Assembly (NCBI GenBank): GCA_009885355.1
Contig: VFKW01000035.1
Location: forward strand, 1 to 45,458
Origin: Candidatus Berkelbacteria bacterium
GTDB lineage: Bacteria > Patescibacteriota > UBA1384 > VFKW01
Reading direction: 5' to 3'
DNA: 45,458 nucleotides
This document shows positions 6,858 to 7,124 of the stretch, piece after piece. A program made the translations under genes and the position numbers. The notes beneath the pieces are model-generated. The model searched no databases, was not told where the DNA came from, and saw only the letters and a program-made list of their open reading frames with translations. Position 1 is the stretch's first letter. The number at the start of each line of letters is the position of its first letter.

Positions 6858-7124
6858 CTATCGTGGCTTTGTGATTAAAAACGCCGCCACCACCGAAAGC
6901 ACCGCGGCTATCAATCCTAAAAACATTGCAATATACATATTTGTTTGGATTTTGCTTTTAGCCAGTGGATTTCGTCCGATTGCTTCCAATCCTCGTCCGG
7001 CCATCCAGGCCATCCCAAGAGCTGAGCCCAAAATTCCCAATCCCGAAGCGATGCCGGCTGAAATATATTTCACAGATCCATATGTACTACTGCCTGAAAA
7101 TGTCGCCGCTCCGGCCAGCCGCAT
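6858..7124 (-). other. Subunit-c-like hairpin segment of the 680-aa ORF (possible internally initiated 88-aa product)
   Basis: ..[68 protein letters not shown] shows a Gly-rich helix 1, an R-N-P loop (canonical RQP) and a hydrophobic helix 2. I hand-translated 6858-6989 to confirm. ATG 7124 is the only in-frame ATG upstream of helix 1. It has only a weak AGGA 6 nt upstream, whereas neighbouring genes have GGAGG-type sites. Confidence 0.75.

Follow-up and report, generated by a model that had tools for sequence, protein, structure and literature searches.

The stretch of DNA analysed here (the window) comprises 45,458 nucleotides, positions 1 to 45,458 of contig VFKW01000035.1 of Candidatus Berkelbacteria bacterium (assembly GCA_009885355.1). 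On its (-) strand lies an operon for subunits of an F-type ATP synthase, with the genes in the order fusion, b, delta, alpha, gamma, beta and epsilon, which overlap one another or are separated by gaps of no more than 18 nt. The first gene (6858..8900) stands in the position of atpE, the gene for subunit c. It encodes a 680 amino acid (aa) protein, hereafter the fusion protein, composed of a signal peptide, five immunoglobulin (Ig)-like domains, a Gly-rich linker and a C-terminal c-subunit hairpin. An earlier reading of the letters alone (the original prediction) had held that this hairpin lacks the ion-binding carboxylate of c subunits. Here we describe the hairpin, its relatives in other Patescibacteria and the kind of machine that the operon may encode.

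The c-subunit hairpin (6861..7079 on the (-) strand, residues 608-680) makes up the C-terminal 73 residues of the fusion protein, as delimited by Pfam family PF00137, by alignments to PDB chains and by the helices of a structural model. PF00137 (ATP-synt_C) matched residues 613-676 over the whole profile (1-60 of 60) with 30.1 bits, the gathering cut-off being 24. When all PDB chains were searched with phmmer, F-type c subunits headed the matches (E 1.6e-6) with gapless alignments, in which 'gvalvE' of the Bacillus PS3 subunit (1wu0/7wem; E56) lies opposite 'amflgL' of the hairpin, and the Glu of 'iafTE' in 9itj lies opposite the same Leu. Both by alignment and by counting from R643, this Leu663 (codon TTG, 6912..6914, (-) strand) occupies the ion-coupling column, that of D61 in E. 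coli and E56 in PS3; at least two base substitutions would be required to turn its codon into one for Glu or Asp. The carboxylate of D61/E56 has an established role in the binding of H+ or Na+. The original prediction had arrived at a Leu by counting 20 residues from the loop Arg, and the count holds at both ends, since R41 and D61 are 20 residues apart in E. coli AtpE as read from NC_000913 and R643 + 20 is L663. Its statement that helix 2 is free of Asp and Glu was borne out by the translation of 6858-8900 on the (-) strand, which is identical to the letters that it had quoted, and the sole acidic residue of the hairpin is indeed E639 in GLEAIGRNP, which corresponds to E37 of E. coli. No alignment placed an acidic residue of the fusion protein in the coupling column. 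The profile score, the Gly-rich helix 1 (GxGxGxG) and the R-(N/Q)-P loop are those of a c subunit, and in an alignment (A1) the columns G14, G16, G19, R37, N38 and P39 are invariant. The loop E639-A-I-G-R643-N-P645 (6966..6986, (-) strand), whose columns are invariant or nearly so, is the best-conserved stretch of the whole protein and presumably makes contact with the gamma/epsilon rotor foot. Judged by its sequence, the hairpin is a true descendant of an F-type c subunit that has lost its ion-binding carboxylate.

The hairpin is the end of a continuous 680-aa open reading frame (ORF), and not the 88-aa unit for which it had originally been taken; nor is it a free-standing proteolipid of about 70-90 aa, the homologues being 655-818 and up to 2,672 aa long. 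A separate 88-aa c subunit translated from Met593, with AGGA 6 nt upstream, was considered as the main product and rejected, because Met593 is not conserved and the frame through the Ig-like domains is open in every homologue. Among related loci and proteins (given L and P numbers here), the position holds Leu in L001 and Ala-His in P0008 and P0017, and the motif is absent from distant members. In an AlphaFold2 model built on a 27-sequence alignment (mean predicted local distance difference test score, pLDDT, 80), the two helices of the hairpin span residues 608-643 and 645-677. The N-terminal signal peptide (residues 1-33, ...KTAVA/AG; 8802..8900, (-) strand) was recognised from the sequence and from a hydrophobic helix at residues 2-24 of the model. 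It is followed by the ectodomain (7125..8801, (-) strand), for which DSSP and pLDDT gave Ig-like beta-sandwiches at about residues 34-330 and 396-592, on either side of a disordered Gly-rich linker at about residues 331-395 (7716-7910, (-) strand). Pfam family Big_1 matched ectodomain residues 155-229. A second, flexible linker of 15 residues (594-608) joins the Ig-like chain to the hairpin. Given the signal peptide, the Ig-like chain should sit outside the cell, and after cleavage of the signal peptide the topology would be N-out, loop-in and C-out, as in canonical c subunits.

The remaining genes of the operon, all on the (-) strand, encode a subunit b and the F1 subunits. The b-like gene (6324..6839) starts 18 nt past the stop codon of the fusion gene, with a ribosome-binding site GGAGGGG ahead of it, and encodes 171 aa with an N-terminal transmembrane helix and a coiled coil. 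The top five PDB matches of this protein are without exception b subunits of ATP synthases (PS3, E 0.004), and counterparts in related loci were found by phmmer with E. coli b as query. Subunit delta (OSCP; 5792..6334) matched PF00213 with 64.5 bits and subunit gamma (3101..3982) matched PF00231 with 156 bits. Subunit alpha (3996..5822, 608 aa) was identified by Pfam and has the Walker A lysine K214 and the Arg finger R404 in the alignment with E. coli. Subunit beta (1695..3107), identified by Pfam and alignment, is 51% identical to that of E. coli and retains Walker A K164/T165, the catalytic E190, R191, Walker B D252 and the DELSE loop. Subunit epsilon (1399..1716, 105 aa) matched PF02823 over residues 28-103 and consists of the beta-sandwich domain only; it aligns just to residues 9-80 of the 139 of E. 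coli epsilon, and the C-terminal inhibitory helical domain is absent. Alpha, beta, gamma, delta, epsilon and b are thus all encoded together, with the catalytic residues and both stalks intact. Alpha is longer than in E. coli (about 510 aa) or in relatives (529-563 aa), having about 38 additional residues at the N-terminus and a low-complexity C-terminal tail of about 70 aa rich in Lys, Glu, Pro and Ala. A scan of the operon for promoters and terminators gave counts that did not differ from those of shuffled sequences.

Relatives were searched for with the full-length fusion protein as query, a word-index search with the hairpin alone having given only 2. In NCBI, JGI, ENA and Logan assemblies, 27 relatives of 655-818 aa were found with 31-68% identity and the Big_1 + ATP-synt_C architecture; identity to named CPR2 fusion proteins was 46-51%. 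A scan of one genome per GTDB species yielded 22 loci (L008-L029) encoding fusion relatives, labelled CPR2, CPR3, Berkelbacteria or 'Patescibacteria group', some names of metagenome-assembled genomes being evidently wrong. A profile search of 1.84 billion representative proteins gave 638 matches, and local re-alignment of the best 150 of these together with the earlier matches left 57 non-redundant single hairpins. Helix 2 contains no Asp or Glu in 27 of 27 full-length homologues, in all those of the loci L001-L029 that have a fusion-type hairpin and in 57 of 57 hairpins, in which the coupling column holds Leu (39), Val (9), Ile or Phe. In the nearest canonical c subunits (75-114 aa) the same column holds Glu in 27 of 27. 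The order of the operon is kept in most fusion-type loci with enough flank; in a few, the b-like protein fell under the phmmer threshold, and in L019 F1 genes were not found within the flanks.

In the window and in L001 the fusion ORF runs without interruption, as it does in most of the other fusion-type loci (roughly 30), of which a few have it split or cut by a contig end. In L001 (GCA_001771115.1, MESU01000021.1, CPR2 bacterium GWD2_39_7) the equivalent is a continuous 664-aa ORF at 7118-9112, of which the record calls only a 70-aa C-terminal 'hypothetical protein' (P0001), so that about 1.9 kb stand unannotated. CPR3 has giant versions, with stop-to-stop ORFs of 2,573-2,592 aa in L019 and L020 and representatives of up to 2,672 aa. 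Proteins of 2,000-2,670 aa that end in a carboxylate-less c hairpin were seen at L019 4097-11872 and L020 4952-12670 and in P0075, P0077 and P0105; in L020, the giant ORF is followed by an FtsX-like permease gene and, at a distance of about 5 kb, by alpha, gamma, beta and epsilon.

When hairpin codons of the window were compared with those of 12 related loci, the proportion of synonymous differences (pS) was 0.73-0.88 and that of nonsynonymous differences (pN) was 0.11-0.33; dN/dS was about 0.09-0.10 where dS could be computed, synonymous sites being otherwise saturated. From the family-wide state, the saturated synonymous sites and the dN/dS of about 0.1, the loss of the carboxylate appears to be ancient and kept by selection. 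Column entropies of the 57 hairpins, numbered from the loop Arg, are 0-0.8 bits in the loop (R-7, G-6, E-4, A-3, I-2, G-1, R0, N+1, P+2, A+4, K+5 and K+7), whereas helix-2 positions +16 to +24, the former ion site, are the most variable with 2.2-2.6 bits, as compared to 0-1 bits in canonical c subunits. Mean column conservation in the full-length alignment was 0.88 for the loop, 0.69 for helix 1, 0.68 for the membrane-proximal Ig domain and 0.62 for helix 2. Selection has thus shifted to the loop that presumably contacts F1 and is relaxed around the former ion site. The simplest reading would be that ring assembly and contact with gamma/epsilon are still needed, and that ion binding and sliding past subunit a no longer are.

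A second group of loci (L030-L047), from Daviesbacteria, Pacebacteria, Gottesmanbacteria, Wirthbacteria and Saccharimonadales, encodes proteins of 260-550 aa (for example L032 9392-10213 and L033 8747-10249). In their hairpins the loop A-I-G-R-N-P-L-A is invariant, none has Asp or Glu in the coupling column, and the Gly motif of helix 1 is lost; L039 alone has an acidic residue in helix 2, close to its cytoplasmic end. The hairpin gene lies directly upstream of F1 genes, with alpha in every locus and gamma and beta wherever the contig continues; when the intervening ORFs of L032 were read, a b-like gene and a weakly OSCP-like gene were found between the hairpin gene and alpha. None of the ectodomains is related to the Ig chain; that of Wirthbacteria is an NHL beta-propeller, and Daviesbacteria and others have a beta-rich domain of roughly 200 aa. 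The Daviesbacteria-type hairpin scored 14.5 bits against PF00137, under the Pfam cut-off, and a profile search with it returned short fragments only and added little.

Some further relatives were noted during these searches. In L051 (CP064992.1, a complete 1.23-Mb 'Candidatus Saccharibacteria' genome), a related operon at 9413-16093 appears fragmented, with a 61-aa hairpin gene and with alpha, gamma and beta called as short pieces, which may reflect frameshift errors of long reads or real decay. P0144 is a free-standing c subunit of 71 aa, with GRNPLAG as its loop and Leu in the coupling column; it may represent either a fragment or a carboxylate-less c subunit that is not fused. Many of the top matches of the profile search, for example P0040, P0054-P0056 and P0064-P0069, are fused multi-hairpin rotor subunits with 3-5 tandem c hairpins per polypeptide, in which Glu is mixed with Gln (or Ser/Gly/Thr) at the coupling column.

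The search for subunit a covered the window plus 47 related loci and their 10-kb flanks, amounting to 830 kb of six-frame ORFs. Neither PF00119 nor an a-like polytopic protein was found when Pfam was run on the window ORFs up to 36.9 kb and the translations beyond were read. A filter for the R-[LF]-x-G-N motif combined with transmembrane segments gave nothing a-like in the window or the 47 loci, only two unrelated motif matches, and it recovered both R210 of E. coli and the a subunit of L049 as positive controls. When E. coli a and L049 a were used as phmmer queries, 0 matches at E<=10 were obtained in the 830 kb, in which the c, b, delta and epsilon queries all found partners. Among ORFs with at least 4 transmembrane segments, none was consistently syntenic; only an FtsX-like permease, a histidine kinase and unrelated small membrane proteins were seen. 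A divergent subunit a hidden nearby was rejected on the motif filter, the two phmmer queries and the survey of transmembrane ORFs. No subunit a is thus encoded with the hairpin in the window or the 47 loci, and a second c gene was not found in the operon or the 10-kb flanks of any of about 48 loci. A carboxylate-bearing hairpin, as would be expected for a mixed ring of the Acetobacterium woodii type, was present neither in the same polypeptide, which has a single hairpin, nor in the same operon.

Translocation of ions through Fo requires the carboxylate of c together with the Arg and the half-channels of subunit a. Since neither the carboxylate nor a subunit a to provide the channel is encoded at these loci, the known mechanism should leave the complex unable to couple to H+ or Na+. 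The original prediction that such a ring cannot carry these ions is supported by the role of D61/E56 and by the absence of subunit a nearby, and we consider it quite probable that the complex is not ion-coupled. With no such coupling, it would work solely as an ATPase. The Gly motif of helix 1 is what packs c rings, and because it is retained in CPR2-type hairpins, these may still assemble into a ring; because the R-N-P loop is near-invariant, the ring would still dock the gamma/epsilon foot. The hairpin would then be the C-terminal membrane anchor of a secreted Ig-like chain. ATP hydrolysis by F1 would turn or strain the ring relative to the b/delta stator, and the motion would be transmitted through the membrane to the ectodomains at the cell surface. 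Such a complex would neither synthesise ATP nor pump ions; driven by ATP, it would serve as a surface machine with which the cell attaches, moves or carries out remodelling where it meets its host. On balance, we lean towards such an ATP-hydrolysing rotary motor coupled to surface domains, rather than an ion-coupled synthase.

The hairpin might instead belong to a mixed rotor, with a normal subunit a and a carboxylate-bearing c encoded elsewhere and the fusion protein as a minority or accessory member of a ring that is still ion-coupled at a lower ion/ATP ratio and is decorated at the surface. A. woodii c1 (4bem_J), which carries Gln at this position in its second hairpin, ranks high among the PDB matches, many multi-hairpin proteins in the profile search combine E and Q hairpins, and the searches for a and c extend over the window and the 10-kb flanks. 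However, known mixed rings have all their c types and subunit a in one operon, and here b, the normal binder of a, is encoded without it. Moreover, the fusion gene stands at the exact position of atpE, none of the operons at about 48 loci contains another c gene, and the a-facing positions of helix 2 are the least constrained, which is unexpected if the hairpin slides past a; because of this operon position, the missing second c gene and the relaxed helix 2, we regard a mixed rotor as unlikely. An ion site of an unconventional kind, with another polar residue (N654, Y656, S-rich positions) or a bound cofactor in the role of the carboxylate, is highly improbable. N654 and Y656 are near-invariant, but their place in helix 2 is close to its cytoplasmic end, and canonical c subunits have similar residues; the mid-membrane column holds L, V, I or F with no protonatable or Na+-ligating group, and the half-channels of subunit a are absent from the window and the 47 loci.

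A static anchor or regulator, in which a hairpin oligomer tethers F1 or the surface protein without productive rotation, would account for the pairing of the hairpin with many unrelated ectodomains, as with a generic anchor, for the Daviesbacteria-type hairpins without the helix-1 Gly motif and for the lack of a visible membrane stator partner for b among the polytopic ORFs surveyed. In a variant of it, F1 would be a soluble-type ATPase or a sensor gated by the ectodomain (outside-in signalling, ATP-dependent conformational switching). We hold it to be rather doubtful, as gamma, epsilon, delta and b are retained under selection with the hairpin across deep lineages, the peripheral and central stalks would both be superfluous for a simple anchor, and the CPR2-type hairpin keeps the ring-packing Gly motif. 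An artefact or a decaying pseudogene, arising from an error of sequencing or assembly or from recent degeneration of atpE, has a negligible chance of being the explanation and was ruled out by family-wide conservation and purifying selection. The same state is seen in more than 40 independent assemblies (NCBI, JGI, ENA, Logan), the ORFs are open over at least 2 kb, synonymous sites are saturated with dN/dS of about 0.1, and the change between Leu (TTG) and Glu takes at least two substitutions. The only artefact-like sign noted was the one related assembly with fragmented atp genes, L051 (CP064992.1). The original prediction had named a wrong consensus in 6858-6950 as a way in which it could fail; such an error is excluded because dozens of deeply diverged, independently assembled homologues have lost the same carboxylate.

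Several points weigh against the rotary surface motor all the same. Ring formation, rotation and the transmission of force are steps that we infer, and if subunit a is missing, no component is evident that would keep the b/delta stator from turning with the ring. The negative results on subunit a and on a canonical c gene apply to the 45-kb window and the 10-kb flanks of related operons. At least ten 60-kDa arms on the inner helices of a narrow ring are sterically demanding and need the 15-residue linker. The ectodomain might also be cut off after export, and a conserved stretch G-x-P-M-R-I-A-G-A does lie ahead of the hairpin in the closest clade. A Foldseek search of the whole model against the PDB gave no specific functional analogue, its matches being generic (titin, contactin, the S-layer proteins SbsC, Sap and EA1, and C3 MG domains; TM 0.13-0.23). 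Extended beyond the window, the rotary surface motor becomes a tentative proposal, in which several lineages of the Candidate Phyla Radiation (CPR)/Patescibacteria may have turned an F-type ATP synthase into an ATP-powered rotary surface machine with ectodomains that are rotated or cyclically strained. Its covalently attached extracellular parts would be Ig chains, beta-propellers or giant adhesin-like proteins, and it could be used for attachment to, or movement on, host cells.

Upstream of the operon, at 9104..13223 on the (-) strand, lie four co-directional genes for secreted or membrane-anchored proteins, most of their Pfam scores being below or near the cut-offs. By weak Pfam matches, these are a dockerin-like gene (9104-10342), a gene for a WxLIP peptidoglycan-binding-like protein (10491-11471) and two cohesin-like genes (11638-12666 and 12663-13223), all on the (-) strand. 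The cluster keeps its place beside the operon in genomes of the CPR2 type. The WxLIP-like and dockerin-like genes (wxl326 and dock412) are syntenic with the operon in 12 loci, upstream in L001, L006-L012, L016 and L021 and downstream in L003 and L015, and both cohesin-like genes also lie alongside in L006-L012. The cluster suggests a larger cohesin-dockerin surface assembly linked to the ATPase.

Other features of the window were also recorded. On the (+) strand, 13509-15041 encodes a 510-aa secreted protein with two Big_7 Ig domains and an SHEYGHH motif resembling the HExxH site of zinc metalloproteases. The region 21089-29519 has a tRNA-Ser(GGA) followed by a gene for a large serine recombinase and a type I restriction-modification system, in which a gene for an AAA_15/AbiEii-like ATPase is inserted between hsdM and hsdS; this region is probably an integrated island. 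The region 34087-35364 contains a gene for an rve-type integrase/transposase and, immediately behind it, a tandem repeat of 24 bp x 2 with perfect copies (35318-35364).

In a 2024 perspective, the enzyme of Patescibacteria is regarded as an F-type ATP synthase that might run in reverse, the usual suggestion being that it then acts as a proton pump (PMC11665869). The sequence data speak against both the synthase and the reverse-pump role in CPR2, CPR3 and Berkelbacteria and for the equivalent operons of Daviesbacteria, Pacebacteria, Gottesmanbacteria and Wirthbacteria, because an ion-binding site is missing from the rotor subunit and its gene is not accompanied by one for subunit a. If the presence of an F-type ATPase is scored from alpha and beta, a metabolic reconstruction would wrongly assign energy conservation or pH homeostasis to these organisms. 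The feature has been hidden from annotation by the PF00137 score of the Daviesbacteria-type hairpin, which is below the cut-off, and by at least one GenBank record that calls only a 70-aa fragment, and no description of a carboxylate-less or ectodomain-fused CPR c subunit was found in the literature searched, the coverage of which was incomplete. The carboxylate-less, fused hairpin is the hallmark of an entire family of CPR atp operons, and it provides the clearest example in nature of a covalent link between a c-type rotor subunit and an extracellular domain. The operon offers a directly testable model of how F1 rotation could be put to use outside bioenergetics, independent of and parallel to the F1-like motors of Mycoplasma. 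If true, the proposal would represent a previously unknown route for mechanical work across a membrane and would partly explain the 'ATP synthase' genes of organisms without a respiratory chain.

Compared with canonical c subunits (PS3 1wu0, E. coli), the hairpin shares the two-helix fold, the Gly-rich helix 1, the L-E-A-I-G stretch followed by the R-N/Q-P loop and a gapless alignment, and its gene shares the position directly ahead of b-delta-alpha-gamma-beta-epsilon; the nearest canonical operon found (L049) reads a-c-b-delta-alpha-gamma-beta-epsilon. In contrast to canonical c, the fusion protein has Leu for the coupling Glu or Asp, RNP(L/M/F)AK-K for RNPEA in the loop, a poorly conserved helix 2, a roughly 600-aa secreted ectodomain and no a gene upstream. 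By sequence it is a member of the PF00137 superfamily that lacks two defining features of c, the carboxylate and the free-standing form, and the operon is best described as a variant of the F-type rotary ATPases in which subunit a is locally missing. A. woodii c1 (4bem) and the multi-hairpin proteolipids of V/A-type ATPases demonstrate that a carboxylate-less c hairpin can pack in a rotor ring; in these rings, however, other hairpins keep the carboxylate, subunit a is present and the rotor is ion-coupled, whereas the fusion operon has a single carboxylate-less hairpin. An altered composition of Fo is also seen in the variant atp operons of N-ATPases and other accessory F-type enzymes. The N-ATPases keep subunit a and a Na+-type, carboxylate-bearing c, and no counterpart of the ectodomain fusion is known.

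In Mycoplasma, F1-derived ATPases of type 2 (the gliding motor of Mycoplasma mobile) and type 3 (associated with MIB-MIP) serve surface machinery, and rotation of gamma has been proposed to be passed via small membrane proteins to a surface protein or legs (PMC11864180). Their clusters have no peripheral-stalk genes or recognisable c but include PGK and GliD/GliE; the ATPases are arranged in chains in the cytoplasm, and a genuine F1Fo operon is present as well (PMC11864180). The two systems would share the recruitment of alpha, beta and gamma in a genome-reduced, host-dependent bacterium with no ion-translocating Fo. The CPR system differs from that of Mycoplasma in that it retains b, delta, epsilon and a Pfam-recognisable c hairpin covalently joined to a surface protein. 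Because delta, b and a c-type hairpin are present, the CPR operon is not an F1-like ATPase of the Mycoplasma type; the latter would be its nearest functional precedent.

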